A DNA stretch of 57,038 nt from an uncultured Candidatus Saccharibacteria bacterium. Its GTDB lineage: Bacteria > Patescibacteriota > Minisyncoccia > 2-02-FULL-40-12 > GWA2-44-9. A program made the position numbers and the translations under genes. The stretch lies in contig CAZAUE010000003.1 of NCBI GenBank assembly GCA_964488565.1, forward strand, positions 1 through 57,038. Direction: 5' to 3'. Shown here in pieces: positions 2,718-49,015 of this stretch; the stretch's first letter is position 1; every line of letters starts with the position of its first letter. A model generated the notes under the pieces. It saw nothing but the letters and a program-made list of their open reading frames with translations. It was not told the origin of the DNA and did no database searches.

Positions 2718-3935
2718 ATGAACAGAACCGAACAGTTGATAGCTGAAACAGATAGATATCTTGCTCACAACTACCATCCATTACCGGTCGTCTTTACAAA
2801 GGCGAAGGGTGTTTGGTATTGGGACGTTGAGGGAAAAAAGATTATGGACATGCTTGCTGGTTATTCGGCTGGTAACCATGGCCACTGTCATCCTCGTATT
2901 GTTAAGGCGTTAAAGGATCAATGCCAAAGACTGGTAGTTGCTCCTCGTTCAGCTTACTCAGATAAGCTTGCAGAATTTGGGCGGGTTATTACTGAGTTTT
3001 GCGGAATGGATAAAATCCTACCTTCTAACGGTGGGGTTGATGCTGTTGAAACGGCAATAAAATTAAGCCGTAAGTGGGGATATACTTACAAAGGCATTGA
3101 AGAGAAGAGTGCCGATTCTGAAATCATTGTTTGTTCCGGTAACTTTCATGGCCGAACCACAACTGTTGTGGGCTTTTCCACTGAGAGTCAGTATCGAAAA
3201 GGATTTGGGCCTTTTGCTCCCGGATTCAACGTAATTGAATTTGGAAATTCAGATGCTTTGGAAAAAGCGATTACCAGAGATACCGTAGCGTTCTTGGTTG
3301 AGCCCATTCAGGGTGAGGGTGGAATAAATATTCCCCCAAGCTCCTATTTTAGAGAAGTTGAACTGATTTGCAGAGAGAAAAATATCCTTTTGATTTTGGA
3401 TGAAATCCAGACTGGATTCGGAAGAACTGGTTATGATTTTGCTTTTCAGCATGAAAATATCCGACCCGACATTCTGATAATTGGAAAATCTCTTGGTGGT
3501 GGTATGGCCGTTTCTGGGGTTTTAGCAAGTAATGAAATAATGAGTGTCATGACTCCTGGTGATCATGGAAGCACCTTTGGTGGAAATCCTTTGGCCTGTG
3601 CTGTTGCTATTGAGGCAATCAATGTTTTGAAGGATGAGGAACTTTCAAATAGATCAGCTTTGATGGGAGATTATTTTAAGTGGAGACTAAAAGCAATAAA
3701 GAGCCCGCTTATAAAAGAGGTCAGGGGAAGAGGGTTAATGATAGGTGTTGAGCTTACTCCTCAAGCTGGAGGGGCAAGACGGTTTTGTGAAGCTTTGCTG
3801 AATGAAGGAATTTTCTGCAAAGAAACTCGCGACAACATTATTCGGTTTACTCCGCCACTTATCATAACGCAATCGCAGATAGATTGGGCGATGAAAAGAA
3901 TAGAAAAAGTTTTTCAAAATGAGGTGAGGAAATGA
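2718..3935 (+). CDS. rocD: Ornithine aminotransferase (class III PLP-dependent)
   Basis: AHNYHPLPVV, MDMLAGYSAGNHGHCHP, EPIQGEGG, DEIQTGFGRTG, PLP Lys in IIGKSLGGG, HGSTFGGNPLA. Confidence 0.88.
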   Translation: MNRTEQLIAETDRYLAHNYHPLPVVFTKAKGVWYWDVEGKKIMDMLAGYSAGNHGHCHPRIVKALKDQCQRLVVAPRSAYSDKLAEFGRVITEFCGMDKILPSNGGVDAVETAIKLSRKWGYTYKGIEEKSADSEIIVCSGNFHGRTTTVVGFSTESQYRKGFGPFAPGFNVIEFGNSDALEKAITRDTVAFLVEPIQGEGGINIPPSSYFREVELICREKNILLILDEIQTGFGRTGYDFAFQHENIRPDILIIGKSLGGGMAVSGVLASNEIMSVMTPGDHGSTFGGNPLACAVAIEAINVLKDEELSNRSALMGDYFKWRLKAIKSPLIKEVRGRGLMIGVELTPQAGGARRFCEALLNEGIFCKETRDNIIRFTPPLIITQSQIDWAMKRIEKVFQNEVRK

Positions 3936-36185: not shown

Positions 36186-37148
36186 ATGATAATAGACAAT
36201 CTAACAATCAGGATACAGGCCGGAAAGGGTGGCGATGGTATCGTTGCTTTCAATAAAAACAAGGGTTCTCAGGGCCCAACAGGTGGCAGGGGAGGCAATG
36301 GGGGCAATATTTATCTTGTGGGAGTTTCCGACCTTGGCGCACTTAATGCTCTTCGTAATTCGAAGGTTTTTAAGGCTGAAGATGGAAAGAATGGCAGGCA
36401 TCAATTGAATGATGGCACTGCAGGAGAAGACCTTTTTATAAGAGTTCCAATTGGAACAGTTATTCATAATTTAACTACTGGTATTGATCAGGAGATTGTT
36501 AAGGTTGGGGAGCAAATTTTAGTTGCCAAAGGTGGGCATGGTGGTAAGGGCAATTTTCTTTTCCGTGGACCACACAGCACTAGTCCGAAAAGATTTCAGG
36601 AGGGTTTGCCTGGTGAGCAGTATAATGTTTTTCTTGAACTTAAAATGATTGCCGATATCGGTATTATTGGACTTCCAAATGTCGGTAAATCAAGTCTCTT
36701 AAACGAGCTTACTAAGGCCCAGAGCAAGGTCGCCAACTACCACTTCACGACGCTGGAGCCCCATTTAGGTGCCTACTACGACCTTATTCTTGCCGACATC
36801 CCCGGTCTTATTGAAGGCGCTTCAGAGGGTAAGGGATTAGGTGTTAAGTTTTTACGTCACATTGAACGAACTCGCGTTCTCTTCCACATTGTTTCCGCTG
36901 AATCTGAAGATCCTGTTAAAGATTATAAATCCATTCGCAAAGAGCTTGGTGCTTACAGTAAGGCAATGTTAGAAAAAGATGAATATCTTTTCTTGGGCAA
37001 GACCGACATGGTTGATTCCGCAACAGTAAAAAAGAAATTAGCAAAACTAAAAAAGTTGAACAAGAATGTTTCTATTCTTTCAATTCATGATTTAGATTCT
37101 ATTACTGTAGTCAAAAAGATTCTCGGCAAAATTTCCAAGGAAAAATAA
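36186..37148 (+). CDS. obgE: GTPase ObgE (short form)
   Basis: AGKGGDG, GGRGGNGG, GLPNVGKSS, YHFTTLEP, ADIPGLIEGA, FLRHIERT. Confidence 0.95.
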   Translation: MIIDNLTIRIQAGKGGDGIVAFNKNKGSQGPTGGRGGNGGNIYLVGVSDLGALNALRNSKVFKAEDGKNGRHQLNDGTAGEDLFIRVPIGTVIHNLTTGIDQEIVKVGEQILVAKGGHGGKGNFLFRGPHSTSPKRFQEGLPGEQYNVFLELKMIADIGIIGLPNVGKSSLLNELTKAQSKVANYHFTTLEPHLGAYYDLILADIPGLIEGASEGKGLGVKFLRHIERTRVLFHIVSAESEDPVKDYKSIRKELGAYSKAMLEKDEYLFLGKTDMVDSATVKKKLAKLKKLNKNVSILSIHDLDSITVVKKILGKISKEK

Positions 37149-37154
37149 TAACAG

Positions 37155-37202
37155 TAGTGGAAAATCAAAAACCCAGTTAACTGGGTTTTTGATTTTCCAC
37201 TA
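37155..37202. repeat. Perfect 48-bp palindrome
   Basis: tagtggaaaatcaaaaacccagtt|aactgggtttttgattttccacta. Confidence 0.9.
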
Positions 37203-37278
37203 ATCTGCTCCGCACTGTGAACAATATTAGAACTATAATTCAGAGGCAAGAGAGGTATATTTACACACCAGATTTGAG

Positions 37279-37728
37279 ATGCTATCATTAGCCGTAAGGT
37301 TCTTTGAAGGAGAATATTCAGTGCAATTAACATTGGGCCAGTTCCAAAAACTTTTACCTGATATTTGCACAAAAGAAACAAGTTTTGACCCCGACAGATG
37401 GATTCCTGAAAATCCATTATGGGGCCATTGCGCGGTAGTATCTTTGTTAGCGAATGATTTTTTTGGAGGTGGATTTGTTAGAGCATTTTTAGACGGCACT
37501 CCATTTGCCGATGTCGGATCTCATTATTGGAATGTTCTTCCTGACGGAACAGAATATGATTTTACAAAAGTACAGTTTGGCAGAACCGAGTTACAGCTAA
37601 AAGGAAAACTTACGAAAAGCGACGGCAAGCCCATAGACAGAGAATATTTACTCAAGAACGAAGAAACTAAAAAGCGATATGAGCTTCTTCGTGAAAGATT
37701 TGAATCTTACCTTCAGCAGGCGAGCTAA
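37279..37728 (+). CDS. YunG-like family protein
   Basis: GHCAVVSLLANDFFGG, SHYWNVLPDG, DFTKVQF, KKRYELL. Confidence 0.7.
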   Translation: MLSLAVRFFEGEYSVQLTLGQFQKLLPDICTKETSFDPDRWIPENPLWGHCAVVSLLANDFFGGGFVRAFLDGTPFADVGSHYWNVLPDGTEYDFTKVQFGRTELQLKGKLTKSDGKPIDREYLLKNEETKKRYELLRERFESYLQQAS

Positions 37729-37782
37729 TGCTCGTCTTTTTATTTTCTCAAAAAGCTCTACCGCCCACATTGGGTCTAACCC

Positions 37783-37811
37783 AAAAAGCCACGCCAAGGC
37801 GGGGCTTTTTG
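37783..37811. terminator. Bidirectional terminator-like hairpin
   Basis: aaaaagccacgcc-aa-ggcggggcttttt. Confidence 0.7.
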
Positions 37812-37815
37812 AAAC

Positions 37816-37837
37816 TGCTCTGCGGCCAGGACTCGAA
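37816..37837 (-). repeat. Inverted copy of the tRNA-Asn 3' end
   Basis: Reverse complement ttcgagtcctggccgcagagca matches 38512-38533 at 21/22 nt. Confidence 0.9.
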
Positions 37838-37838
37838 T

Positions 37839-38246
37839 TTATAATTTTGCCCTGCCGTTCTCAACCTCTGTATGACAGTTTTTACACAATAAAATACATT
37901 TTTGAGCTTCCTTCATAACAGTTGCCCATGAATAACATAATCCCTTAACACTTAGCGCAAAGGATTTAGTTTTAGGGTTAATATGATGAAAATCAAGAGC
38001 GCCACTATATTTTTTATAACCACAAATAATACATTTACCGCCAAATATTTTTACCAATTTTTCCTTCTTGTTTCTGCGACTATCTATGACCCACTCGGAG
38101 GCACATTTACCACAACGATAAGTGTTATCGCCTCGTTTTAAGTGTTTTGTTTTTCCGTGTTTTGAACATTCAATTATCATTGTATTAAGTATAACACTTA
38201 GTGTTAAGACGTAAAACCTTATATCGATTAATTTGAAATCTTTCAT
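37839..38246 (-). CDS. HNH endonuclease with zinc-binding motifs (likely start ATG 38180)
   Basis: CSKHG..YRCGKC; GGKCIICGY; ALDFHH; CILLCKNCHTEVE. Confidence 0.82.
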   Translation of the reverse strand: MKDFKLIDIRFYVLTLSVILNTMIIECSKHGKTKHLKRGDNTYRCGKCASEWVIDSRRNKKEKLVKIFGGKCIICGYKKYSGALDFHHINPKTKSFALSVKGLCYSWATVMKEAQKCILLCKNCHTEVENGRAKL

Positions 38247-38280
38247 TTTTATGTTAATATAATCACGTTGTTTAATATAT

Positions 38281-38531
38281 TCCGCGGTAGCTCAATGGTA
38301 GAGCGGCTCCCTGTCAAATAAGGCAGCTTCACGCAGAAATGCGAGATGAAAAACTGGGCTAATTCGGGGAAACCTTTTAACTGGCAATCCCGAGCTAAAT
38401 TCACGCAAGTGATAAATGTGTAGAGACTATATACCCGGATCCCGTTAGGGATATGAGATAGTCCACCCCATTACGAAAGTTATGGATCATGTGTAAGGAG
38501 ATGGTTCCAGGTTCGAGTCCTGGCCGCGGAG
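38281..38531 (+). tRNA. tRNA-Asn(GTT) interrupted by a group I intron; exons 38281-38314 and 38494-38531
   Basis: Acceptor tccgcgg/ccgcgga + G73; D arm gctc-aatggta-gagc; joined loop CT-GT|T-AA; T arm ccagg-ttcgagt-cctgg. Confidence 0.9.
38315..38493 (+). ncRNA. Group I intron (179 nt, no ORF) between anticodon positions 35 and 36
   Basis: P1 ctgtc/ggcag with U-G pair at the splice site; aattcgggga and aatcccgagc core; P7 gacta/tagtc; P8 atccc/gggat; terminal G. Confidence 0.9.
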
Positions 38532-40162
38532 CACTTGTCATGATTTTGGTTTAAAACATCAGAATCGTGGCGAAGAATCAGTGTTTTTTGAAGTTCGAAA
38601 TTCTTTTTAACTTCGGGAGTCATTGATTCTATTGGTTGAACACTAAGAACGCCAGAAGCCCCATTAATACTGGGGTTTTTGGTTGGTTCGAAATTATTAT
38701 TGAGTTTTGGTGCCCAATCAGCTAAGAATTTGAAACCAGGAGTGTATTCGGCACTTACCTTACCTGCCAATAAATTAATGTTGGAGAAAACATAACTCAA
38801 CAACAACCTCTGTTCATCTTTTGTTATATGCTTGCATTTATATATATCCTTAACATGTAAAGCTAGCTCATGAATGGCCAGCCCAGCCTCATAGTAGGCC
38901 GTACGAGTCTCGCTAAGGCTCTCCAAGGCCTTTATGGCGGAGTTTTTTTCATCGGTGGCATCCTTTATCATTTTTTCACAAATTTCCAAGGGAAGCTCTT
39001 CTAGCAGTTTGCCTCGATATGCTCCTTCGATGATTTTATCAGAGGACTTAATGATTCTTTGGAGGTTTTCTTTCTGACGAGTATGCTCAGTAATCTCTTC
39101 TTTATGGCTGTCTTTTAACGCCTTGGTAAGTTTTTCAACTATTCTTGGATTTTTCATAACTACTGCATTGAAGAATGGTAAAAGTCGATTTTCAAATTCT
39201 GTCTCGAGTATAGTTCCAGCCTGAGAACAGTTTTTGTAGTGATTGCAATTTCCACGCCACTTACCCTTACTGAGATACCAGCTTATTACGCCTTTGCACT
39301 CCTCGCATCTAACCTTCCCTTTATACAGGGGAAGGTGTTTCTGATATTTACCGCCATGTTTGGCGTTTAATCTAGTCTGCACAGAGTCGAATAACTCTGG
39401 TGATATGATAGCTTCATGAGAACCATTTTGAGCCTTATCATTCCAAACCATTTTACCGCAGTAGAACGGGTCTGATAATAATTCATGGAGCCTGCTCTTT
39501 AATACTTTGCCACCCTTCTCATTTCGTAAACCTTTGTCGTATATTGCTTCAACGAGTCTCGATAACGAGTAGTTTCCTGAATTATATTTCTCAAAAGCTT
39601 CTCGCATCAGTCCGTCCATTGGCGGATTTACAACATGATGCTTGTGACCTTTTTCACCGATAGTTTTATAGCCAATTTTAGCCCTGCTTGGATAACCGCC
39701 CATTTTAAGTTTCTGTGCCTGACCCTTCTTAACCTCTTCTGAGAGGTTATTAATGTAAAATCTGGCTATTGCAACTTTCATATCCCAAACCAAATTTTCA
39801 TGGGCTTTAGTGTTCTGATTAAGAATAAAAGATTCTTTGATAAAGTGAACCTCACGCTTCAAATCGCCCTTAACCCACTCGTCAACAATACTGGCATCTT
39901 TGGGAGTTCTGGTCAGTCTGTCTATTTTCTCGCAGAGAATAACTGAAATCTTATGCTTAGCAGTATATTCCAGCATCTCGGTAAATATTTTTCTAATCTG
40001 CTTACCGCTTGCTGACTCAGCAATACGATACTCTTTTACAACATCGAATCCTTTTCGTTCGGCATATTCTTTAAGGAGAGAAAGCTGGGCATCTAAAGAA
40101 TAGCCAGTATCTTCCTGCTCTTTACTACTAACGCGGGCATAAATTACGCATTTAATTTTCAT
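38480..40162 (-). CDS. Large serine recombinase (resolvase + recombinase + zinc ribbon)
   Basis: IYARVSSKEQ catalytic Ser, EKIDRLTR, RCEECKG..CNHYKNC; frame runs through the tRNA 3' exon antisense. Confidence 0.9.
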   Translation of the reverse strand: MKIKCVIYARVSSKEQEDTGYSLDAQLSLLKEYAERKGFDVVKEYRIAESASGKQIRKIFTEMLEYTAKHKISVILCEKIDRLTRTPKDASIVDEWVKGDLKREVHFIKESFILNQNTKAHENLVWDMKVAIARFYINNLSEEVKKGQAQKLKMGGYPSRAKIGYKTIGEKGHKHHVVNPPMDGLMREAFEKYNSGNYSLSRLVEAIYDKGLRNEKGGKVLKSRLHELLSDPFYCGKMVWNDKAQNGSHEAIISPELFDSVQTRLNAKHGGKYQKHLPLYKGKVRCEECKGVISWYLSKGKWRGNCNHYKNCSQAGTILETEFENRLLPFFNAVVMKNPRIVEKLTKALKDSHKEEITEHTRQKENLQRIIKSSDKIIEGAYRGKLLEELPLEICEKMIKDATDEKNSAIKALESLSETRTAYYEAGLAIHELALHVKDIYKCKHITKDEQRLLLSYVFSNINLLAGKVSAEYTPGFKFLADWAPKLNNNFEPTKNPSINGASGVLSVQPIESMTPEVKKNFELQKTLILRHDSDVLNQNHDKCSAARTRTWNHLLTHDP

Positions 40163-40438
40163 TTCTAAGATAAAAGGGATAACTTGCTGGACATAACCTC
40201 TTGCGAGACTATAGGCAAATTATCCCATTTATCCCCACAAGATTATGTTATGTCCATCTAAATTATACCTCTTTTTAATTGATTAGTAAATTGTCCAGGT
40301 TGCCTAACTATTTATTTGCCAGACAAATAAATTTTCTAAACACAGAATTCTTTATTGGTTTTAAGGAAAAAAGAGAGAAAATTCTTTATTCTTTAATTTA
40401 TTTCCTTTTTCTTGTTTCTATTCATCTTATTTAATGTG

Positions 40439-40921
40439 CTATTTCGTGCCTGTAATAAAGGCAGGTTTTTGCACAGACGGTAGGCAAAGTTGTGACGGTT
40501 CCTGATACTTAATAGAAATCTCGTTACTGTTATTAAACCGTCTTTTTGTTGTTATAAATTTTTCTTCCTTGAGTCTTGATATAGCCGACCTCACTGTTCT
40601 TATCGGAATATTAAGGTCTTTTGATATTGTTTTCTGGCTACACCAAACTTTCTCTTTTCTTGATAGGGTTATTTTACCCCTGTTATACTCTGACTTAATA
40701 TGTTTCCAGTCATAAGATAATATACAGCCCAACACTCTCCACGTCGAACCGCTAAGGCGACTACCCCTTAAAAAGAATGAATAAGGAACCACTACCACTC
40801 TTTTTGTTAAGTCCCTGGTAACTAATGGCGCCCATGCAGGCATTCCTGGTGGCATATCATATCCTGGAATATAATCTCTTACCGTCTCTATTTCTCCATC
40901 AATTGTATTATCTTTATCCAT
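40439..40921 (-). CDS. Helix-turn-helix protein (replication-initiator-like wHTH)
   Basis: VWCSQKTISKDLNIPIRTVRSAISRLKEEKFIT pattern. Confidence 0.7.
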   Translation of the reverse strand: MDKDNTIDGEIETVRDYIPGYDMPPGMPAWAPLVTRDLTKRVVVVPYSFFLRGSRLSGSTWRVLGCILSYDWKHIKSEYNRGKITLSRKEKVWCSQKTISKDLNIPIRTVRSAISRLKEEKFITTKRRFNNSNEISIKYQEPSQLCLPSVQKPAFITGTK

Positions 40922-41081
40922 TTTGTGTGTCTTTTTGTGTCCTATGGCTAACTTTTGCCAGTAAGTCGAAATAGCCTAACCAATCATAAGCAAATCTTGA
41001 AACTTCCTGGAAAGAAAAATCTTTGCCATAGTCCTCTTTAATTATTTGTCGTAGTTCACTCACAAACTCTTTTTCGACCAT
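40914..41081 (-). CDS. 55-aa small helical protein (not in ORF track)
   Basis: MVEKEFVSELRQIIKEDYGKDFSFQEVSRFAYDWLGYFDLLAKV...; stop overlaps the start of the HTH gene. Confidence 0.6.
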   Translation of the reverse strand: MVEKEFVSELRQIIKEDYGKDFSFQEVSRFAYDWLGYFDLLAKVSHRTQKDTQNG

Positions 41082-41389
41082 ACACTAAGCCTACACTTGG
41101 TAACTGGTGTAATAAAATGTGGATTAGCCAAATTCCTCGCATTTTGTTTGTCTAAAAGTTTGTTCATTCAGAGCTATTTTCTTGATTTTACTTGTGTTTT
41201 TAGTATTAAATTCAAGGCTCATCATCAATGATTGGGTCTTTGTTAATATGGGGCTTGTAATAATAACCTTTCCGAGAAAAATTCTACATCGGGGTGGTGC
41301 ACGTTCTGGTATTAAAAATATTTTCTAGTCTTCATAAATTATCAGTAGACAGGGCAAATAAAAAGGGTATAATTTAATCAAAACTAAAC

Positions 41390-41516
41390 AGGAGCCTAAA
41401 CTCGGCTGATTTATCAGCAGGGCATGGCACAAAATCGTAGCGTATATAGACCCCATCATAGGGCGTACGCTACGTTGCAGACCGAAAGGTTTGTAGGTCA
41501 CCGAAAGGTGGCTCCT
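41390..41516 (+). promoter_or_regulatory. Structured leader / ncRNA candidate
   Basis: Closing stem aggagcc/ggctcct; 9-bp cgtagcgta/tacgctacg; two GAAA-capped hairpins; tagaca..tataat promoter-like sequence upstream. Confidence 0.45.
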
Positions 41517-41536
41517 GTGGTGGGTTTTATGTTTTT

Positions 41537-42010
41537 ATGAAAACAATAATAGTTCTTCTAGTGTTGGATTTATTTGTGTTTGTTTTAGTCCCCTTGGGGA
41601 GTAAGAGAGAGTGGACTAAAAAAGATTTTAAATACTACTATTTGATGTGGGGCGTATTTTTAGGTATTCCCACACTGCTTTTAATTTCAAAACTTATGGG
41701 CATTATAAATCTAGAAAATATGGCTTCAATATTTCAAATATATGGTTTAAGAGTAATAGTGGGCATAATTTCGGGTGTGGTTTTATTGTTGCTAACTTTT
41801 CTATTATTTTATTGTTTTTTCAGAGGTATTTGGGAAGAAATTAGGAAATCTATAATCAAAGGATTGAAAAAAGATATAAACGGAACTTCGGTTCCTATCA
41901 CCCAAAAAGAAGAAAATATTTTTGACCAACTAGAGGAAGTTCAGCCATCCGAAGGGCAAGAGGAGGAAGCTTATGTGATTTTTCACTCTGATAAAAATGA
42001 ACATAAATAA
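41537..42010 (+). CDS. Hypothetical membrane protein
   Basis: Three hydrophobic segments, acidic tail. Confidence 0.65.
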   Translation: MKTIIVLLVLDLFVFVLVPLGSKREWTKKDFKYYYLMWGVFLGIPTLLLISKLMGIINLENMASIFQIYGLRVIVGIISGVVLLLLTFLLFYCFFRGIWEEIRKSIIKGLKKDINGTSVPITQKEENIFDQLEEVQPSEGQEEEAYVIFHSDKNEHK

Positions 42011-42251
42011 ACACATCTATGTTATTACGGGTGTTGTTATTCTCGTCTTGGCTGGCTATTTTTACTTTATCCAAACCAACAATCAAGAAGTTGTTGAGTC
42101 TCAGGAGATGGGGGCTGATACATCAGAATCATTATCTATAAACCCCAAAGAAATACTTAAATATGACCCGAATGCTCCAGCATGGATGCAAGATGCTGAA
42201 TCGTGCACCAAGGTTAGAGAAAAGATTTTCTGCAAGCTCAAGGGTGAATAA
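41997..42251 (+). CDS. Small membrane-anchored hypothetical protein
   Basis: N-terminal TM, C-terminal C..C; overlaps upstream gene. Confidence 0.6.
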   Translation: MNINKHIYVITGVVILVLAGYFYFIQTNNQEVVESQEMGADTSESLSINPKEILKYDPNAPAWMQDAESCTKVREKIFCKLKGE

Positions 42252-42408
42252 AGCCCAAATCCAGAGTATTCATAGGGAGTTTATAAGGGGTTATTGAGTG
42301 GTTAAATTGACCTAAAATTACCCTGAGGAGCATCCAAAAGACACTTAAAAGACCCTAAATTACATCAAAAAGCATGCTATAGACAAACACTTAAAAACAG
42401 CGCAAGAT

Positions 42409-43458
42409 ATGACTATTGTGACTTACCTAAAAAAGAACTGGTTTCGGGCTATTCTCGTAGTAATAATTGTTATTTCTGTTCTCTCTATGTTTAGCAATTA
42501 CAGTAGTGCCGATGTTTATGTAAATGGTTATTATCGTAGTAACGGAACTTATGTAAATGGATATTACAGGAGTTCTCCCGACAGTAATCCATATAACAAT
42601 TACAGCTATCCAGGAAATACCAACCCTTATACTGGCAAGGTAGCCCCAGGAAACCCCGATACTTATCTAAAGAACTATTACGGAGGTTCGTCAGGTGGCT
42701 CTTCTGGGGGAAGTTATTATAATTACTATTCGACCCCGACACCTACCCCCTCTTGTCCATCCATGTCTAGCTATAACTCTTTAAGTGGTTCTTGTGAGTG
42801 TTATTCGGGGTATGTAGCTGATGGAGGTAGCTGTACGAGTGGTCTGAGTTATTGTTGGTCTAAATATGGCTACAATTCCAGCTATAGTTATCTTAATAAA
42901 AACTGTGAGTGTGATTATGGATATGAATTAAAATATGGGACATGTACCAAAAGTCCAACACCTACACCAACTCCGATTGACCCAGACGCATCGTGCAGAA
43001 GAAGCTTTGGAAACTACTCTTTGGCTAGTACGAGTAAGCCTGGTTATTGTACCTGTGTAAGTGGCTATAAATTTGACGCAAACAAGCAGTGCACTTTTGT
43101 TCCCATTTTTATTCCAACTCCAATACCAACGCCAATCCCGACACCTAATTTTCAGAGCATCTCTAATCAAGCAAAGATTAGCTTAAAAAAGTTCCAAGAA
43201 CCAATACCGTCTTCGACACCAGTAAGCATTAGTTGTAAGGGTGATTATTCAATATCTTTAGATAAAAAACGATGTGTCAAAATTCCAAACAATGCTCATC
43301 CTGCCAATGATGGCAAAAATGTTTGGCTTTGTAATGATGGCTATGTGGAAAAAGGTAATTTTTGTGTTTTAACAAGTCCTTCCTTAAACTCATTTCCGAT
43401 AACTGATACTTCTCCGAAAAGTAATAAAAGTGGTTGGGGTATATTTAAATTCTGGTAA
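42409..43458 (+). CDS. Secreted Cys-rich EGF-like repeat protein with PT linkers
   Basis: YVNGYYRSNGTYVNGYYRS; CECYSGY, CECDYGY, CTCVSGY, WLCNDGY repeats. Confidence 0.75.
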   Translation: MTIVTYLKKNWFRAILVVIIVISVLSMFSNYSSADVYVNGYYRSNGTYVNGYYRSSPDSNPYNNYSYPGNTNPYTGKVAPGNPDTYLKNYYGGSSGGSSGGSYYNYYSTPTPTPSCPSMSSYNSLSGSCECYSGYVADGGSCTSGLSYCWSKYGYNSSYSYLNKNCECDYGYELKYGTCTKSPTPTPTPIDPDASCRRSFGNYSLASTSKPGYCTCVSGYKFDANKQCTFVPIFIPTPIPTPIPTPNFQSISNQAKISLKKFQEPIPSSTPVSISCKGDYSISLDKKRCVKIPNNAHPANDGKNVWLCNDGYVEKGNFCVLTSPSLNSFPITDTSPKSNKSGWGIFKFW

Positions 43459-43463
43459 ATTAT

Positions 43464-43898
43464 ATGCAAACACAAGACAAGAGACGGTTTTGGCTTGGCG
43501 TGGTTTATCTAGGCGTAGTTGTTTCTGGAGTGTATACATTTTTACATTTTGGAGAAAAGATATTTTTCAACGTAAGTCCTATTAATAATCCTTATCTAAT
43601 GTTCGGACGGATTTGGTTTTCCTTTTGGTGTGGGTTGTTGGGCATTTCCCTACGAGCATTTAAATTTTCACGAAACGGGAGAGTTTCTCCTTGGATGCCA
43701 TATCTCTTTAAGTATCCCGTTCTTATTTTTTTTGAATCTGTATTTGTTTTTTCTATTCTAAATATGAGCGAAATTATTTCATTAAGTTATCTCTTTTATA
43801 CATTTACACTCCCAGTAATGTTTTATCTGGGATTTGGAGCCTTTGAGGCTTATTCGGAATTAAAGCAATTATTACGCAACAATTCGGGTATGGATTAA
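43464..43898 (+). CDS. Hypothetical multi-pass membrane protein
   Basis: Four hydrophobic segments. Confidence 0.65.
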   Translation: MQTQDKRRFWLGVVYLGVVVSGVYTFLHFGEKIFFNVSPINNPYLMFGRIWFSFWCGLLGISLRAFKFSRNGRVSPWMPYLFKYPVLIFFESVFVFSILNMSEIISLSYLFYTFTLPVMFYLGFGAFEAYSELKQLLRNNSGMD

Positions 43899-44009
43899 TA
43901 CTAAAAACATGCTCCGTGGTTAAATTCTGTGGTTTATATTAAACAAAGACTGGCAATTCCTGCCATGTTTTGTTAGATTGGTTCAGTATAAATTAATTTC
44001 AATGCAATT

Positions 44010-46604
44010 ATGTCCGATAAATCAAGTTTAAGAGGCTCTGAATGGGGAAAATGGGATTTACATTTCCATACCCCAAGTTCGTATGATTATCAGAATAAAT
44101 CCGTAACTAATTTAGAAATCGTTAGCATTCTAAAGCGTGCCAATATTAAGGTTGTGGCAATTACAGACCACCATTTTATTGATGTCCAGAGAATTAAAAA
44201 CTTAAAAGAATTAGCTGGGGGTGATATAACCTTTCTCCCAGGCATAGAATTCTGCTCTAATTCCAGAGGAAAGGAGCCCATTCATTTTATTGGAATATTT
44301 CCAGAAAACTCGGATGTTGAGTATGTCTGGAACGAGATAAACGCAAAAGCTGAAATAGCAAAACAAAAAAAAGATGGCAAATCTGATTCTGAGATATACT
44401 GCAACATAGAAACAACATCGAAGATAATAAAAGGTCTAGGTGGCCTGATTTCTGTCCATGCTGGTAAGAAATCAAATTCTTTGGAAACTATTACCAATTC
44501 TCTTCCTGTTAATATGGCGGAAAAAGAAGATATTGTAAAACACATTGATATCTTTGAATTGGGACAAGAGGGAGACCAAGACAGCTATATAAAAAAAGTT
44601 TTTCCTAAAATTGGTGACCGTCCCATGGTAATATGTTCCGACAATCACAATATTAAGAAATATAAACTGAAACAATCTTGCTGGATAAAAGCAGACCTGA
44701 CCTTTGAAGGCTTGAGACAGATTTTATATGAACCGAAAGATAGAATAAAAATTCAAGAGCTTAAGCCAGAAGATAAATCCAATTATAATATTATCGATAG
44801 GGTGGAATATAAAAATCCATCCGAAACCGATAACAGGGTTATATATTTTAATCCAAATCTGTGTTCCGTTATTGGAAGTCGTGCTTCAGGAAAATCAAAT
44901 CTGCTAAAAAATATAGCTTTGTCAATTGACCCAGACCAGTGCAGATTAAAAAACATTAGCCACACAGATCTATTTAAACTTAAAGATTTTAAATTATTTT
45001 GGAAAGATGGTAAGAGCAATATCTTAGACCCAGAAACCAAAGAAAAAGGTGTGTTGTTTATACCCCAAGGATACTTGGGGGAAATAGTATACAACAAAAA
45101 TCGCCAATTTGATGATTTCTTATCAGAATTATTTGAGAATAAAGAAGAATTCAGCCAAGCTTTGCAGAGCTACAGAAACTTTGAAGACGGTAATATTTTG
45201 GAAATTACATCCTTAACAAGAGAACTTTTGGCTATGAGAGAAAATGGTAGAGAAAAACAAAACAAGGTCAAGAAACTTGGGAAAAGAGAAGACATAGAAA
45301 TAGACATAAAAAAAATTGATACAAAAATTAAAGAAGTAAATGATGTCGAGAAAAACATTACATTAGAGGAGATAGAAAGTTATAAAAATTTAAACTCGAA
45401 TAGGTCTAAAAAAGAGAAAGAGCTCAAGCTGATTGAGGGGGACATCTCCTCTCTGGAGTTATTAAAAGAAGAAGAGATTATAACAGCAGATAGGATTTCT
45501 GAGTTTGATTTTTCTAAAGAATTCATGGAGAAAATCGAGAAGAAATTAAAAGAGTCTGACGATGCCTTTAAAAAAGATTTTATAGTACTGGAAATAAATA
45601 AACTTGTTAAAAACAAAAAGAAGATTGAAAAGGAAATTTTAGAGTTTGAAGGAAAAATAAAACCACTAAAGATTAAAATAGATAAACACAAGGCGCTAGC
45701 GGAACTAACCAAATCTCTTCAAGACAAAAAAGAGGACCTCGTACTGATAAATTCTCTTAAAAAAGACATCTCTGACCTAAGAGTAGTATACGGTGATAAA
45801 TTGCTTGACATCATCAACAAATATATGTTCTTTGACACTCAATATAAAAGCCTCAGTATTAATATTGGTTCACTAAAATTTTCAGCAGTAGATATAACCA
45901 CAGACTTCGATGATGATTTATTCAAAAATTTTATTGAAAATAATATTAATTATCACAATTCGATTTCTTTCAGAAAAGACCAGGATAAAAAATATGTGTC
46001 GGCAAACAAATTTCTTAGCGATATGGGTCAGTGGGCCTATGATAAGAAGGATTTCTCTATACTATTGAAACAAATTATGCTGGGAATTTTGTCTGGAGAT
46101 TTGCTATTAAAATCAGGGAGGGATGAGGAAAGTGTTATCATAGAATTGTTCAAAAATCGGTTTAAAATTAATTTTTTAAAAAGTATAAAAAACAAGAGTG
46201 GAAATGAATTCGAGGATATGTCAGATGGGGAAAAAGCCCTCGCACTCTTGGAGTTTATTTTTAAGTTTGATAACTATAACTATCCTGTATTAATAGACCA
46301 ACCTGAAGATGACCTTGATTCTAGGGCAATATCAAAACATATTGTAGATTTTATCAAAGAAGAGAAGGGTAAAAGACAGGTCATAATAGTATCGCACAAT
46401 GCAAACATGGTTGTATGCGGAGATAGTGAGGAAGTCATCGTATCAGAAAAAAAAGGTGGCAAAACACCTATCTTTGAATATTCTTCAGGTGCTATCGAAG
46501 ATAAAAAAATTAGTCGGGAGATAATAGAAATATTAGAAGGAGGTAAGATTGCTTTGGCAAAACGTCGTGATAAACTTGGACTATCTAATAATCAAAAACC
46601 CTAA
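44010..46604 (+). CDS. PHP phosphoesterase fused to ABC/SMC-like ATPase (TrlF/Ppl-like)
   Basis: WGKWDLHFHTP, ITDHH, GIEF, SVHAG, CSDNH; Walker A GSRASGKS; coiled coil; MSDGEK; LIDQPEDDLD; VSHN. Confidence 0.85.
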   Translation: MSDKSSLRGSEWGKWDLHFHTPSSYDYQNKSVTNLEIVSILKRANIKVVAITDHHFIDVQRIKNLKELAGGDITFLPGIEFCSNSRGKEPIHFIGIFPENSDVEYVWNEINAKAEIAKQKKDGKSDSEIYCNIETTSKIIKGLGGLISVHAGKKSNSLETITNSLPVNMAEKEDIVKHIDIFELGQEGDQDSYIKKVFPKIGDRPMVICSDNHNIKKYKLKQSCWIKADLTFEGLRQILYEPKDRIKIQELKPEDKSNYNIIDRVEYKNPSETDNRVIYFNPNLCSVIGSRASGKSNLLKNIALSIDPDQCRLKNISHTDLFKLKDFKLFWKDGKSNILDPETKEKGVLFIPQGYLGEIVYNKNRQFDDFLSELFENKEEFSQALQSYRNFEDGNILEITSLTRELLAMRENGREKQNKVKKLGKREDIEIDIKKIDTKIKEVNDVEKNITLEEIESYKNLNSNRSKKEKELKLIEGDISSLELLKEEEIITADRISEFDFSKEFMEKIEKKLKESDDAFKKDFIVLEINKLVKNKKKIEKEILEFEGKIKPLKIKIDKHKALAELTKSLQDKKEDLVLINSLKKDISDLRVVYGDKLLDIINKYMFFDTQYKSLSINIGSLKFSAVDITTDFDDDLFKNFIENNINYHNSISFRKDQDKKYVSANKFLSDMGQWAYDKKDFSILLKQIMLGILSGDLLLKSGRDEESVIIELFKNRFKINFLKSIKNKSGNEFEDMSDGEKALALLEFIFKFDNYNYPVLIDQPEDDLDSRAISKHIVDFIKEEKGKRQVIIVSHNANMVVCGDSEEVIVSEKKGGKTPIFEYSSGAIEDKKISREIIEILEGGKIALAKRRDKLGLSNNQKP

Positions 46605-46660
46605 AGGTGCGATGTTTCTTTTATTTGATTTTTTAGGGTTTTTGAGATAAACATATCTAA

Positions 46661-47026
46661 ATGGATAAGGACTATAAAAGAGAAGCCCTTAGAATACTGA
46701 AGGTCAGTAATTGGACAGATGATATGATTAGCAAAGCTTTTGCCGTTTCTGAGAAAGAAATTATTAGGATAGAATCAACAAAGAAGAATATATACAAGGA
46801 AGAACATAGAAAAAGAATCATGAACATTTTACCACCTGATTTAAAGAAACAGGTTGATTACCTATCTACTTATAGAAAAAGAAATAAAACGATTGTTAAT
46901 GAGCGGGTTAATATTATCAGAAGATTAAGAAGTGAATTCCCTTTTTCTTTTCCAGAGATAGGTCTACTACTCAGAAGAGACCATTCAACGATAATGCATC
47001 ATTACAAATCAAGCGTTGAGCATTAA
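46661..47026 (+). CDS. Small protein with DnaA domain IV-like HTH
   Basis: FSFPEIGLLLRRDHSTIMHH resembles the DnaA C-terminal S.PEIG..F.RDHTTV.HA motif. Confidence 0.65.
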   Translation: MDKDYKREALRILKVSNWTDDMISKAFAVSEKEIIRIESTKKNIYKEEHRKRIMNILPPDLKKQVDYLSTYRKRNKTIVNERVNIIRRLRSEFPFSFPEIGLLLRRDHSTIMHHYKSSVEH

Positions 47027-47283
47027 TTTAGTCCGCCTTAAATCCTGTACACAGTGTTTAGTTGATAACTCAAACTCAATTTTTGGGACAGGGCAATGTA
47101 ACAAATATTCTGATTGTCCAGACCGAAATGGGGACACATAAAACTATCCAGCCAAGGATATAAGGTGTTGAATTTGTCTTAAATCTAACTCTGGAACTGG
47201 GAACGCAGTCTTCCAATCATAAGATTTAAAGGCACTAGTCCATTGTTCTAAGGTTGTCCGCTTCAGCGAGCAGAACAGAACAG

Positions 47284-47315
47284 GACAAGACGACACGAAA
47301 GTGTGTCGTCTTGTC
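47284..47315. terminator. 13-bp stem hairpin
   Basis: gacaagacgacac/gtgtcgtcttgtc. Confidence 0.55.
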
Positions 47316-47366
47316 GTTTAATAGTGCGACGTATTCTGATTTAAGGATTTTTGCTATTATTATTGC

Positions 47367-47597
47367 ATGAACATTCATCCGATTGACGGACTTATTAATA
47401 ATTCTCAGGCTAGGTCAATTTCAAAAGCCATAACCTGGCGAATAATAGCTGCAACTATCACTGGGACTATAGTGTTCGTCTATACAGGGAAACTAAAAGA
47501 GACCGGGGAGATACTTATGGTAGCCGAAATAATACTGACTATTGCCTATTATCTTCATGAAAGATTTTGGATTTTGATTAGAAAAAAGAAATCCTAG
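47367..47597 (+). CDS. DUF2061 small membrane protein
   Basis: RSISKAITWRII...YYLHERFW signature. Confidence 0.8.
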   Translation: MNIHPIDGLINNSQARSISKAITWRIIAATITGTIVFVYTGKLKETGEILMVAEIILTIAYYLHERFWILIRKKKS

Positions 47598-47698
47598 GCT
47601 CTAATGTCTTGGGCAAAACGGAGCAGAATCTAACACCCCAGACCATGGGGAAGCCAAGTTGTTTACTAGTTAGTAAAAATGTGGTACAATATTAGGAC

Positions 47699-48832
47699 AT
47701 GAGAATCGCAACTAATATAACCAGAGAATATCTCGGAGGTATTACTCGATCAAATATAAATTTCTTAGATTCAATTCACGGTAAACACGGTGGTGTTGTT
47801 GGGATAGAATTAAACAGTAGAAGATATATGCAGGCGCCATCGATATTTAGACATTATGATCTAGATTGGTTTAGTCACCATATTATAAACATTCATGACC
47901 TATCTATTTTTACGGCAATTAAGAGGTCTAAATCTATAAAAGATTTAGAAAAAAAATATAAACCAATAATAAAAATAATTAAAACTATATTAATTAAAGA
48001 TAAACCAGACGTAATTTTCTTGAACGGGACATATTATATCCCATGGCTTATATCTATTGCTGCTCATGAATTAAAGATTCCAATAGTTTTAAGGTATGCT
48101 GGTGTCTATACCAAAGAAACAGAAAATTTTACTCCAAAGTTTAAAAAATTTTTCAATGAAATGGAGAAATCTTTTAAAAAAAGAGTCGGCCATTTTATAT
48201 TTCCATCACATTTATGTAGAGATTTGGTTGAGAAAGAAATTTACAAAAAAAGTATTGATAATGCTTTTGTAATTTCAAATTCTTTTAACACCAAAGAAGA
48301 CACTACTGTTTTTAGAACAGCAGAAAGAAGAATTGCTGCCGTCGGTAGATGGGATAGAATAAAGAATTTTAAGGAATTTTTTGAGATTCACAAGATGTTG
48401 AAAAAAAATGGTTGGGAGCATGAAGCCTCATTTGTGACTAGTGATTCAAAAATAAAAGATATGCCTAAGAGCATAAACAGATTAGCGACAATGACACACG
48501 AAGAACTGTTAAATTTCTATTCCTCCCAGGGTCTTATTATTTGTCCATCATTGTTTGAAACGTTTGGAAATGTGCCGATGGAGGCGGTTTGCATGGGAAT
48601 TCCTGTTCTTGTTAGTGACAATATGGGTTGTGCAGAAATTTTAAAAATTGCCGGATTAGGCAACATGGTAATTTCATTTAAGGATAGAAAAAAAGTTGTC
48701 GAAAGGGTCCAGTTGCTTTGTGGTCAACAAATATTACCAAAACAAATAAATAACGTTCGTAAAATTCTTAATTCAAAATTGATAAATGCTGAAATAATGG
48801 CAGTTCTCAGAGATGCTGCCCAAATCGAGTAA
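47699..48832 (+). CDS. Glycosyltransferase family 4 (GT-B)
   Basis: FIFPSHLC, AVGRWDRIKN, IICPSLFETFGNVPMEAVCMGIPVLVS. Confidence 0.88.
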   Translation: MRIATNITREYLGGITRSNINFLDSIHGKHGGVVGIELNSRRYMQAPSIFRHYDLDWFSHHIINIHDLSIFTAIKRSKSIKDLEKKYKPIIKIIKTILIKDKPDVIFLNGTYYIPWLISIAAHELKIPIVLRYAGVYTKETENFTPKFKKFFNEMEKSFKKRVGHFIFPSHLCRDLVEKEIYKKSIDNAFVISNSFNTKEDTTVFRTAERRIAAVGRWDRIKNFKEFFEIHKMLKKNGWEHEASFVTSDSKIKDMPKSINRLATMTHEELLNFYSSQGLIICPSLFETFGNVPMEAVCMGIPVLVSDNMGCAEILKIAGLGNMVISFKDRKKVVERVQLLCGQQILPKQINNVRKILNSKLINAEIMAVLRDAAQIE

Positions 48833-48998
48833 TGCTGGACGGACTACTCCCTCCCGATATTTTCTTGCGGCAGGAAGTGAACTACCTCACTTCCGTCAGG
48901 ACGAGAAAGACGGAGCGATGTAGCTGTCAGTAGACAGACACCGCGAGTCCCGTCCGAGTGCTCAAGTTTGCGACGGCAAACTTGAAGCCGAGGAAGAC

Positions 48999-49015
48999 GT
49001 CCTGGTCGCAGAGCA
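48999..49015 (+). repeat. attR-like direct repeat of the tRNA-Asn 3' end
   Basis: gtcctggtcgcagagca, 15/17 to the tRNA and 16/17 to the inverted copy. Confidence 0.75.

Follow-up and report, generated by a model that had tools for sequence, protein, structure and literature searches.

A 0.72-kb unit at positions 37813–38536 of the window, the whole 57,038-nt stretch of Candidatus Saccharibacteria DNA analysed here, probably joins an HNH endonuclease of the type found in phage tRNA clusters to an intron-bearing tRNA-Asn gene and to F, a remnant of a tRNA-Asn 3′ end. The segment between its two repeat arms was inverted in evolution by exchange between them, and F would be maintained by recombination with T3, the true 3′ end of the tRNA gene. 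The features on which this reading is built are listed in Table 1.

Table 1. Features of the HNH–tRNA-Asn region and of the elements around it
Feature	Position	Strand	Basis or remarks
11-nt tRNA-Asn 3′-end relic (reverse complement GCGGAGCAGAT)	37203–37213	−	Directly after the Obg terminator palindrome, 37155–37202
YunG cassette	37214–37812	+	CDS 37279–37728; terminator hairpin 37782–37811; inserted into a repeat arm
G+C hairpin with T-run	37782–37811	−	Downstream of HNH and F on the minus strand
F, inverted copy of tRNA-Asn positions 54–73 with flank	37813–37837	−	Left repeat arm
HNH endonuclease gene, 113 aa plus stop	37839–38180	−	Homologues, invariant residues, PHROG, AlphaFold2/Foldseek, dN/dS
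HNH protein motifs			N-terminal zinc-ribbon-like CxxH...CxxC; HNH core CxxC...DFHH...CxxCH
Conserved palindrome, putative promoter/operator, CTTAACAC-N4-GTGTTATACT	38188–38208	−	Extended −10 type; 11 nt upstream of the ATG
tRNA-Asn(GTT) 5′ exon, ending ...CTGT	38281–38314	+	Read from the sequence; ARAGORN with intron option
Group I intron of 179 nt without an ORF, separating anticodon bases 35 and 36	38315–38493	+	Rfam RF00028
tRNA-Asn 3′ exon, to discriminator G73, no CCA encoded	38494–38531	+	Read from the sequence
T3, true tRNA-Asn 3′ end	38512–38536	+	Right repeat arm; also serves the island as its left attachment site
Large serine recombinase, 560 aa	38480–40162	−	Pfam Resolvase and Recombinase; 3′ end overlaps the tRNA 3′ exon
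Integrated island, ~10.5 kb	38534–48998		Recombinase, HTH protein, LOOT RNA, Ppl-like PHP-ATPase, GT4 glycosyltransferase
Third, direct tRNA 3′-end copy GTCCTGGTCGCAGAGCA, 15/17	48999–49015	+	Far island border; AGATTGACAAAATACC-hairpin flank next

The two arms form a 25-nt inverted repeat in which 23 of 25 positions are complementary and whose copies lie 674 nt apart. The 22-mer TTCGAGTCCTGGCCGCGGAGCA, allowing up to three mismatches, occurs at these two places only in the 57 kb, where shuffled sequences gave an expectation of 0.00. T3 comprises the T-loop, the 3′ strands of the T-stem and acceptor stem and the discriminator (tRNA positions 54–73), together with 2–5 flanking bases. F is identical to this local tRNA end at 19 of 20 positions, whereas the best of 445 control windows reached 15/20, and is separated from the HNH stop codon (37839–37841) by a single base (37838). 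Coordinates, repeat search and shuffles all agree with the initial annotation, which had placed on the minus strand, divergent from the intact tRNA, an HNH stop followed after 1 nt by a tRNA 3′-end copy and then a terminator.

The HNH ORF more likely encodes 113 aa, starting from the ATG at 38180, than 135 aa, because homologues are ~113 aa long and the alternative ATG at 38246 would lie upstream of the conserved promoter motif. Its assignment to the HNH family, also proposed in the initial annotation, was borne out by a match to PHROG phrog_2255 'HNH endonuclease' (E 1.5e-24), and four more HNH PHROGs matched as well. Pfam PF21368, at 17 bits, stayed below its cut-off of 23, and searches of PDB sequences and of NCBIfam with the protein gave no match. 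Residues C50, C53, D63, H65, H66, C99, N101, C102 and H103 were invariant in 24 sequences. AlphaFold2 modelled the protein with a pLDDT of 90.7, and the top Foldseek matches in the PDB were all HNH nucleases (Cap5, Gme HNH 4H9D, Cas9 HNH and T4 endonuclease VII), albeit weak ones (E at least 0.09, TM-scores 0.31–0.39). We regard the protein as an HNH-family nuclease, its activity and its target both being predicted from sequence. The palindrome upstream of the gene, a putative promoter, was found as the strict pattern in 67 of 103 loci and as one-base variants in most others, and it occurs in every gene architecture. Its half-site GTGTTA resembles the anticodon loop CTGTTA, but over too few bases to carry meaning.

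Standard ARAGORN missed the tRNA-Asn(GTT) gene; with the intron option the program found it, mislabelled as Thr(tgt). The 3′ exon pairs with the 5′ exon to give the acceptor and T stems, and no other tRNA-Asn gene lies nearby. The interrupting sequence matches Rfam Intron_gpI (RF00028) with 65.5 bits (E 2e-14; gathering score 50), the last base of the upstream exon is U and the last intron base is G, and we predict a self-splicing group I intron without an ORF. A literature search found nothing specific on tRNA-Asn introns or tRNA-linked HNH genes in Patescibacteria; one paper merely mentions group I introns in some tRNAs of such genomes.

The proximity of the two genes is not peculiar to the window. 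In a survey of Patescibacteria (CPR), the HNH gene lay within ~250 nt of tRNA-Asn, or inside its intron, in about 110 independent loci, as the linkage suggested in the initial annotation would lead one to expect. HNH and tRNA-Asn are divergent in 58 loci with the intron and 5 without it, and in tandem in 18 with and 9 without; the tRNA lies upstream of HNH in 6 loci, and HNH is inside the intron in 15 genuine loci (L055 was also filed there, but is a frameshifted HNH copy with a spurious tRNA call). A convergent arrangement was not encountered among the ~110 loci. In the surveyed Patescibacteria loci, any tRNA sequence placed immediately after the HNH stop is in the sense strand, as a whole gene, as the 3′ part of the intron with its exon, or as F. 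On viral contigs, 47 of 57 HNH homologues lie at most 300 nt from a tRNA gene; those of Felix O1 and crAss-like phages are located in tRNA arrays, and the phage locus L190 (L numbers denote surveyed loci) has the order tRNA-Arg, HNH, orphan tRNA-Arg 3′ half. The family thus lives beside or within tRNA genes, and in Patescibacteria it is attached specifically to tRNA-Asn.

Such linkage has a precedent in T4 SegB, a free-standing homing endonuclease encoded in a tRNA cluster, which recognises GGTTCRANTCC and has its major site in a tRNA-Asn gene. The likeness is that of a small nuclease gene set among tRNA genes, and F begins exactly at the T-loop motif of SegB; the window protein may, by analogy, recognise tRNA-Asn DNA as SegB recognises this motif. 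SegB is, however, a GIY-YIG enzyme and the window protein an HNH one. The enzymes of phage T5 likewise lie in a tRNA cluster, and we take these to be of the HNH class. Both systems are carried by lytic phages that have multi-tRNA arrays, and they spread during co-infection, whereas the gene in Patescibacteria is chromosomal, bound to one tRNA species, apparently vertically inherited and strongly conserved, with a target that is predicted.

The initial annotation had also likened the locus to collaborative homing, as described for F-CphI with psbA in cyanophage S-PM2 and for mobE with the nrdB intron in T4 (PMC3984707). The analogy is reasonable because HNH is linked to tRNA-Asn and more distant relatives reside within this intron itself, at an identical tRNA-Asn position, the host sequences being bona fide group I introns of 55–79 bits. 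With these intron-internal relatives, a single family holds all stages of the proposed route by which endonucleases invade introns, a further likeness to collaborative homing. The host gene differs, being a tRNA rather than a protein-coding gene. Where the analogy falls short is that HNH is not tied to the intron: it adjoins an intron-less tRNA-Asn in 17 loci, 14 of which have the 113-aa form with at least 60% identity, and coexistence therefore does not require an intron. The intron-less alleles mostly differ in the anticodon stem, and in L017 and L105 exon sequence is shared with alleles that have the intron. These 17 loci, some with exons identical to intron-bearing alleles, leave incomplete any simple model of cleavage at the intron-less allele and immunity through the intron. 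The tRNA-end copy and the flip between inverted repeats are without counterpart in collaborative homing systems.

F, too, recurs in relatives. A copy matching the tRNA end at 18 or more of 20 positions lies directly 3′ of the HNH stop in the window and in L139/L161, L009/10/11/93, L092, L094, L095, L022 and L044. Across nine related lineages F adjoins the stop, starting 0–1 nt after it at tRNA position 53/54, and it differs from the tRNA end at only 0–2 of 20 positions despite synonymous divergence of 0.9–1.3 (saturated) among the lineages. Weaker tRNA-end relics adjoin the stop in L096, L109 and L115, while most loci of the divergent type are without F. In the reading that we favour, F would stem from the distal portion of a tRNA-Asn gene that at one time had the HNH gene in front of it or within it, possibly as an insertion scar of the homing endonuclease or as the remnant of a second tRNA gene copy, and non-crossover recombination between F and T3 would have kept it near-identical to the selected tRNA end. 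An intermediate with two full tRNA-Asn genes flanking HNH was not found among the surveyed loci; L163 has two full inverted tRNA-Asn copies, which do not flank HNH. We also considered whether F forms a structured RNA, tRNA-like or otherwise, in the 3′ UTR of HNH and rejected this, since it lacks the 5′ strand of the T-stem and folds no better than shuffled sequences do (z = −0.68).

Two other origins of F were weighed. F could be a working part of a mobile cassette, serving as a portable homology arm with which the HNH gene could home into any tRNA-Asn gene, or as a repair template for HNH breaks in the only tRNA-Asn gene, and would then be kept by selection and not by passive gene conversion. 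We think this unlikely, even though F is conserved far better than neutral sites and, in L124, where it represents a different tRNA sequence type, matches the differing tRNA end of its own genome at 30 of 30 positions. The similarity of the window to L022, L044, L094 and L095 also begins and ends exactly at the two arms; in the tRNA-upstream loci L096, L109, L115 and L123, HNH sits between direct tRNA-end copies, as if a cassette had inserted there; L190 repeats the design on tRNA-Arg; and homing of the SegB type takes neighbouring tRNA genes along. Against such a function, F in the window is inverted relative to the tRNA, which rules it out as a second arm for simple repair of double-strand breaks into a resident gene. 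In the window, L092, L094 and L095 it shows one to three changes or truncations specific to the lineage, which resemble relaxed constraint, it is missing from most loci, and the congruence of HNH with Obg described below suggests vertical descent.

It is still less probable that F is an ordinary attachment-site scar of an unrelated integrative element that came to lie beside HNH by chance. Scars in the form of direct repeats of the tRNA-Asn 3′ end do commonly lie downstream of the gene (L020, L021, L025, L033, L042, L118 and position 48999 of the window), L123 has two tandem tRNA-end relics, and serine-recombinase elements repeatedly target tRNA-Asn. However, F is inverted and lies 5′ of the tRNA, unlike all these scars, and its placement 0–1 nt from the HNH stop in nine lineages with saturated synonymous sites, like that of the weaker relics at the stop, speaks against coincidence. 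The known tRNA-integrated islands with direct tRNA 3′-end repeats share their pattern with the 38534–48998 island, the YunG cassette and the scars elsewhere, all at the same tRNA end; F differs from them in being fused to the HNH stop and in having no integrase beside it in relatives.

Comparison with relatives revealed that the segment between the arms has changed orientation. Positions 178–1243 of L009 align with window 36186–37213 in the forward direction, and positions 1236–1972 align with 38533–37817 in reverse; alignments of L094 and L135 to the window show the same pattern. Window 37194–37213 (CCACTAATCTGCTCCGC) matches the place in L009 and L094 where the Obg hairpin meets the tRNA 3′ end and the sequence runs on into a complete minus-strand tRNA; the window keeps this 17-nt junction as a relic. 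At the other side, the AGATTGACAAAATACC flank follows HNH-F in L044 and L092 and the displaced tRNA end in the window; the flank that comes after 48999–49015 is homologous to L044 919–974 (blastn E 3e-6) and to the flank of F in L092, and adjoins F in relatives. Judged by Obg, the closest relatives are L135/L139 (94.7%), and their order is unflipped. Both outer flanks are kept in relatives and the inner 674 bp are reversed in the window lineage, showing that the segment was inverted, by arm-to-arm strand exchange, after the split from these nearest relatives. L092 was examined as a second independent flip on account of its orientation relative to Obg, and was rejected: the AGATTGACAAAATACC flank remains attached to its HNH-F, as it does in L044, which indicates a different rearrangement. 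Only one flip is robustly documented.

The arms enclose the tRNA body, both promoters and HNH. The flip is neutral because either orientation rebuilds a complete tRNA gene and the HNH-F junction; with the same junctions in both orientations, inversion is predicted to alter no promoter–gene relationship. The initial annotation had raised the prospect of both orientations of 37816–38533 being present; the sole orientation seen in the 8 distinct places listed for 14 contigs with identical HNH was that of the window, the second being defined by the junctions ...TTTTTGAAACTGCTCYGCGGCCAGGACTCGAA joined to CCTGGAACCATCTCC and GGCAAAATTATAAATTCGAGTCCTGGCCGCRGAGCA joined to CTTGTCATG. Contig ends at 38307–38309 (L006 and L008) were considered as a sign of the alternative orientation and dismissed, since they fall at a population variant at the 5′ end of the intron (CGAGT versus CAAAT, with a 13-nt indel in L003) and do not lie in the repeat arms.

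The initial annotation had proposed that the neighbouring serine recombinase could flip the HNH–tRNA segment through the inverted repeats. That the repeats mediated a flip was upheld, but the part given to the recombinase was not, as it is absent from the surveyed DNA of relatives that have the repeat pair. A programmed site-specific inversion, in which the large serine recombinase would use the inverted tRNA-end copies to flip the segment as a switch, appears highly improbable to us. The recombinase gene does adjoin one arm, its ORF overlapping it, and the arms contain the palindrome CCGCGG; serine integrases lose directionality when the central dinucleotide is symmetric. The junctions of the YunG cassette and of the island also fall inside the arm sequence GC(G/A)GAGCA, which implies that recombinases act there. 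Nevertheless, no recombinase was found near the repeat pair in L009, L022, L044, L092, L094, L095 or L139, within up to 4–6 kb on each side (the contigs of L094 and L139 being 1–2 kb), and a convergent serine recombinase next to the tRNA-Asn 3′ end recurs in ~15 other loci that have no F. As is usual for integrases, the recombinase is accompanied by island cargo and by a direct repeat of its own at a distance of 10.5 kb, and the substrates of this integrase class are attP and attB, not attL and a half-site. With both promoters inside the segment, inversion would change nothing that a switch could use, and the single orientation in the places listed points the same way.

The recombinase is thus best predicted to be the integrase of its island and not a dedicated invertase; it would simply share the tRNA end as the attachment site. 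The island has a lower G+C content (0.32–0.37), and its cargo was assigned with Pfam, PADLOC (Ppl, E 7.6e-40) and Rfam (LOOT). The YunG cassette (Pfam E 2.8e-23) is flanked by a 9-nt direct repeat, CTGCTC(C/T)GC, and is absent from all other surveyed loci. In the reading that we favour, the arms would have exchanged through general recombination or break repair, although a 22-bp repeat is near the lower limit for RecA-dependent exchange. Flip-flop between short inverted repeats is known from plastid or phage inverted-repeat isomers, and there, as in the window, inverted copies recombine, the intervening segment reverses and the copies evolve in concert. The window differs in that the arms are just 22–25 bp long, one of them lies in an essential gene and either isomer restores that gene.

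The HNH gene is under strong purifying selection, with a dN/dS of 0.06–0.12 over deep divergence. Its identities are congruent with those of Obg, and in the window clade it looks vertically inherited. Together, a dN/dS of ~0.1 and this congruence look like the record of a vertically inherited useful gene rather than of a mobile one, and a purely selfish homing gene would not typically show such selection and descent. The protein might accordingly have been domesticated by the host, for example in tRNA-Asn expression or DNA repair, with no homing and with F and the repeat left as evolutionary debris. We consider this doubtful. The low dN/dS, the apparent vertical descent, the persistence of the linkage at intron-less tRNA-Asn and the conservation of the palindrome in all architectures would all fit a host function; but relatives occupy an intron and phage tRNA arrays, the classic places of homing endonucleases, the disrupted copies in L044, L055, L135 and L163 mark the gene as dispensable, and no domain points to another function.

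At the other extreme, the 0.72-kb unit could be a selfish or addictive module, in which HNH would cut or nick tRNA-Asn at the T-loop, F would act in cis as a repair template or homology arm, and break-induced exchange would drive both concerted evolution and continuing flip-flop. We give this proposal a low probability; if true, it would make an essential single-copy tRNA gene the vehicle and hostage of a homing endonuclease across much of Patescibacteria.

For the biology of these bacteria, one practical consequence is that tRNA-Asn is probably scored as absent in many Patescibacteria genomes; standard tRNA finders overlook this gene. The tRNA-Asn 3′ end is also an integration hot spot for defence islands. 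The locus offers an unusually clean natural example of a neutral inversion, in which a 22-bp inverted repeat with one arm in an essential gene has allowed harmless inversion and concerted evolution. If the enzyme is specific, a 113-aa nuclease recognising tRNA-gene DNA would be of interest in itself. This HNH family, abundant in an uncultured bacterial radiation, presents within one family and on one target every proposed stage in the union of an endonuclease with a group I intron: free-standing at an intron-less gene, free-standing at an ORF-less intron, and intron-internal.

A repeat search recovered the inverted copy of a tRNA 3' end reported by the initial annotation as two arms of 25 nt each, complementary at 23 of 25 positions and spaced by 674 nt. 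The 22-nt core has no further copy in the window at up to three mismatches, and none in shuffled sequences. The plus-strand arm (T3) is the 3' end of tRNA-Asn(GTT), positions 54-73 plus flank. On the minus strand, the annotated succession of HNH stop codon, a single base, the tRNA-end copy (F) and a terminator hairpin was confirmed. The intron-bearing tRNA gene was missed by standard ARAGORN and detected when the program was run with introns. Right after the splice site (38315-38320), the population varies between CAAAT and CGAGT (window, L007 and L163), the L003 intron carries a 13-nt indel, and two short contigs terminate precisely at this variable intron 5' end.

Features of the tRNA-Asn/HNH module and adjacent insertions in the window
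Feature	Position	Strand	Details
Palindrome after Obg	37155-37202		24+24 nt, perfect, no loop
Relic of old junction	37194-37213		CCACTAATCTGCTCCGC
YunG cassette	37214-37812		single gene with own terminator, inside repeat arm; flanked by 9-nt direct repeats CTGCTC(C/T)GC
F	37813-37837	-	left arm of inverted repeat
HNH start (ATG)	38180	-	113-aa reading
Promoter-like palindrome	38188-38208	-	CTTAACAC-N4-GTGTTATA(A/C)T
tRNA-Asn(GTT) 5' exon	38281-38314		
Group I intron	38315-38493		179 nt, between anticodon bases 35 and 36; Rfam 65.5 bits
tRNA-Asn(GTT) 3' exon	38494-38531		
T3	38512-38536	+	right arm of inverted repeat
Island	38534-48998		~10.5 kb, at tRNA-Asn 3' end; recombinase at head
HTH protein			island cargo
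LOOT RNA (Rfam RF03000)	41393-41513	+	73.3 bits (gathering score 46.4)
Ppl-like PHP-ATPase	44010-46604	+	864 aa; PADLOC 'Ppl' E 7.6e-40
GT4 glycosyltransferase			island cargo
Third tRNA-end copy	48999-49015		direct repeat at island border, 15/17

The 113-aa reading of the HNH ORF is preferred because it matches the length of the homologues and because a promoter-like palindrome lies downstream of the alternative start. This conserved palindrome, CTTAACAC-N4-GTGTTATACT, is located 11 nt upstream of the ATG. It contains an extended -10 box, occupies the same position in ~90 related loci and stands 10-15 nt ahead of the HNH start in every architecture; this position points to an mRNA with no leader or almost none, and the palindrome is possibly an operator. 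The protein matches phage HNH families (phrog_2255, E 1.5e-24), retains the invariant residues CxxC...DFHH...CxxCH, and yielded a high-confidence structure model (pLDDT 90.7) whose structural neighbours, all weak, are HNH nucleases. It is thus a member of the HNH family, with putative nuclease activity and target. More than 230 close homologues were found, nearly all of ~113 aa and from Patescibacteria.

To place the gene in context, loci were gathered, 80 each from species-representative genomes and metagenomes, and annotated by tblastn and ARAGORN. The divergent arrangement of the window predominated (58 loci with and 5 without the intron), followed by HNH immediately upstream of tRNA-Asn on the same strand (18 and 9) and tRNA-Asn upstream of HNH (3 and 3); convergent pairs were absent from the Patescibacteria survey, with or without the intron. 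At 15 further loci a shorter form, 46-54% identical, lies within the tRNA-Asn intron, in the P1 loop of introns at the same insertion site (Rfam 55-79 bits); L055, a frameshifted copy of the 113-aa type, was filed with them through a spurious tRNA call. Phage tRNA arrays also harbour the family: of 57 homologues on viral contigs, 47 have a tRNA gene no more than 300 nt away, and for the closest ones this is tRNA-Asn. The HNH gene ORF44 of phage Felix O1 overlaps a tRNA-Ile start, a copy resides within the tRNA array of the crAss-like phage DAC15, and some phage homologues are convergent to the tRNA gene. The genomic survey and the phage arrays together identify the family as a tRNA-gene-associated HNH lineage. 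Published precedents for such an association are T4 SegB, which recognises the T-loop motif GGTTCRANTCC and has its main site in a tRNA-Asn gene, and the F-Tfl enzymes of phage T5 (PMC2330249).

The initial annotation had proposed, as one option, that nuclease and intron-bearing tRNA form a unit akin to collaborative homing (reviewed in PMC3984707). The survey did not support a dependence of the linkage on the intron: HNH also stands beside intron-less tRNA-Asn at 17 loci, so that the linkage is to tRNA-Asn, not to the intron. The intron-less loci include L012, L014, L015, L017, L048, L098, L105, L109, L119, L121, L122, L124, L125 and L138. In 15 of the 17 alleles the 3' strand of the anticodon stem does not start with GG, the sequence of most intron-bearing alleles, while L017 and L105 have exon sequence common to some intron-bearing alleles. 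The non-GG stem may reflect lineage, the pairing needs of the intron, or nuclease resistance.

Between the window and L009, L092, L094, L095, L013 and L109, HNH dN/dS is 0.06-0.12, with dS of 0.9-1.3 for the nearest lineages, and identities of HNH and Obg rank the relatives in similar order. These values show purifying selection and argue for vertical inheritance in the window's clade. Disrupted copies in L044, L055, L135 and L163 indicate that the gene is dispensable.

A strong F (at least 18 of 20 positions identical) directly follows the HNH stop codon in the window, L139/L161, L009/L010/L011/L093, L092, L094, L095, L022 and L044, always starting at tRNA position 53/54; the best identity among 445 control windows was 15/20. 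The more distant L124, whose tRNA gene is intron-less and ends in a different sequence, has a 30-nt copy identical to its own tRNA. Decayed copies adjoin the stop codon in L096/L097, L109, L115 and L123, all loci of the tRNA-upstream arrangement; these are direct repeats resembling non-local tRNA-Asn types. Wherever the HNH stop codon runs straight into tRNA sequence in the surveyed Patescibacteria loci, that sequence is sense-strand. A phage tRNA array on viral contig L190 (2701-3400) contains a complete tRNA-Arg(TCT), a homologous HNH and an orphan 3' half from a different tRNA-Arg(TCT); the HNH stop is followed at once by the anticodon loop, with which this half begins.

At a dS near 1, a neutral 20-mer is expected to lose about a third of its positions, and F has lost 0-2. 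Each lineage has its own changes: a G-to-A substitution in the window, a truncation in L094, and two and three changes in L095 and L092, respectively. The pattern fits recurrent correction against the selected tRNA end more closely than direct selection on F, the less probable alternative. F (37816-37824) and the far-border copy (49007-49015) both read GCAGAGCA, with the same G-to-A change. In a tRNA this A would be mispaired in the acceptor stem, and the functional end carries G. The altered form may once have belonged to the tRNA and been replaced upon island integration.

Comparison of flanks revealed an inversion. L009 and L094 align with window 36186-37213, through Obg and its terminator palindrome to 8 nt into the tRNA end, and their following 740 nt align reversed to window 38533-37817. 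The same reversed alignment is seen in L135, the relative whose Obg is most similar (94.7%). The old junction persists in the window as a relic, separated from the arm by the YunG cassette. On the other side, the third tRNA-end copy is in direct orientation and precedes AGATTGACAAAATACC and a hairpin, a flank that comes after HNH-F in L044 and L092. Both comparisons point to the ancestral order Obg - tRNA(minus) - HNH(plus) - F - flank, from which the window lineage inverted the inner segment through exchange within the arms. The exchange is symmetrical: in either orientation the tRNA is whole and HNH is joined to F, and the two promoters move with the segment. Misassembly is unlikely, since the repeat is far shorter than assembly k-mers and independent assemblies reproduce the same orientation. 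L092 was considered as a second flip and rejected, because it retains the flank beside HNH-F, indicating another rearrangement at the arms. The palindrome after Obg (TAGTGGAAAATCAAAAACCCAGTT / AACTGGGTTTTTGATTTTCCACTA) presumably terminates transcription in both directions; L009 and L094 conserve it. The close relative L163 has two complete intron-bearing tRNA-Asn genes (2198-2462, plus; 3635-3901, minus), inverted and 1.2 kb apart. One adjoins a serine recombinase, and beside the other is a truncated HNH; inverted duplication of the complete tRNA-Asn gene thus does occur.

The suggestion that the segment flips between its repeats stands as one evolutionary event, and the neighbouring serine recombinase is an improbable agent. 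No recombinase was found in relatives sharing the repeat pair (flanks up to 4-6 kb; contigs of 1-2 kb for L094 and L139), and ~15 other loci have a recombinase convergent to the tRNA-Asn end without F. The 560-aa protein (Resolvase and Recombinase domains), whose ORF extends into the tRNA 3' exon, heads an island of lower G+C (0.32-0.37 vs ~0.40 elsewhere) that ends at the border direct repeat; it is therefore an integrase for which the tRNA-Asn end serves as attachment site. The island arrived there after the flip. Its Ppl-like protein, combining an N-terminal PHP domain with an SMC/AAA_21-type ATPase, is a candidate anti-phage defence gene, and its LOOT RNA shortly precedes a 157-aa ORF that contains hydrophobic stretches. 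The YunG cassette, absent from every other surveyed locus, looks like the remnant of another element using the same site; it entered the arm that now forms F, either before or after the flip. Short direct-repeat scars of the tRNA-Asn 3' end occur in L020, L021, L025, L033, L042, L118 and L123, at a distance downstream of 150-400 nt or, at some loci, of kilobases, with two tandem relics in L123. In these genomes the tRNA-Asn 3' end is a hot spot for integration generally.

We consider it moderately probable that three elements jointly explain the module: a homing-type HNH gene attached to tRNA-Asn; F as a leftover of tRNA-Asn sequence that this gene formerly preceded or interrupted; and occasional exchange between F and T3, in which crossover would yield inversion and non-crossover concerted evolution. 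Stimulation of this exchange by putative HNH-made breaks is an attractive possibility.

One paper remarks on group I introns in some tRNAs of such genomes; our literature search found nothing describing tRNA-Asn introns or tRNA-linked HNH genes in Patescibacteria. Free-standing endonucleases in tRNA clusters, collaborative homing, short-repeat inversion and tRNA-targeted islands are each of known kinds. What is apparently new is the combination of these four, the location of a repeat arm within an essential gene, and the chromosomal, radiation-wide attachment of an HNH gene to one tRNA species.
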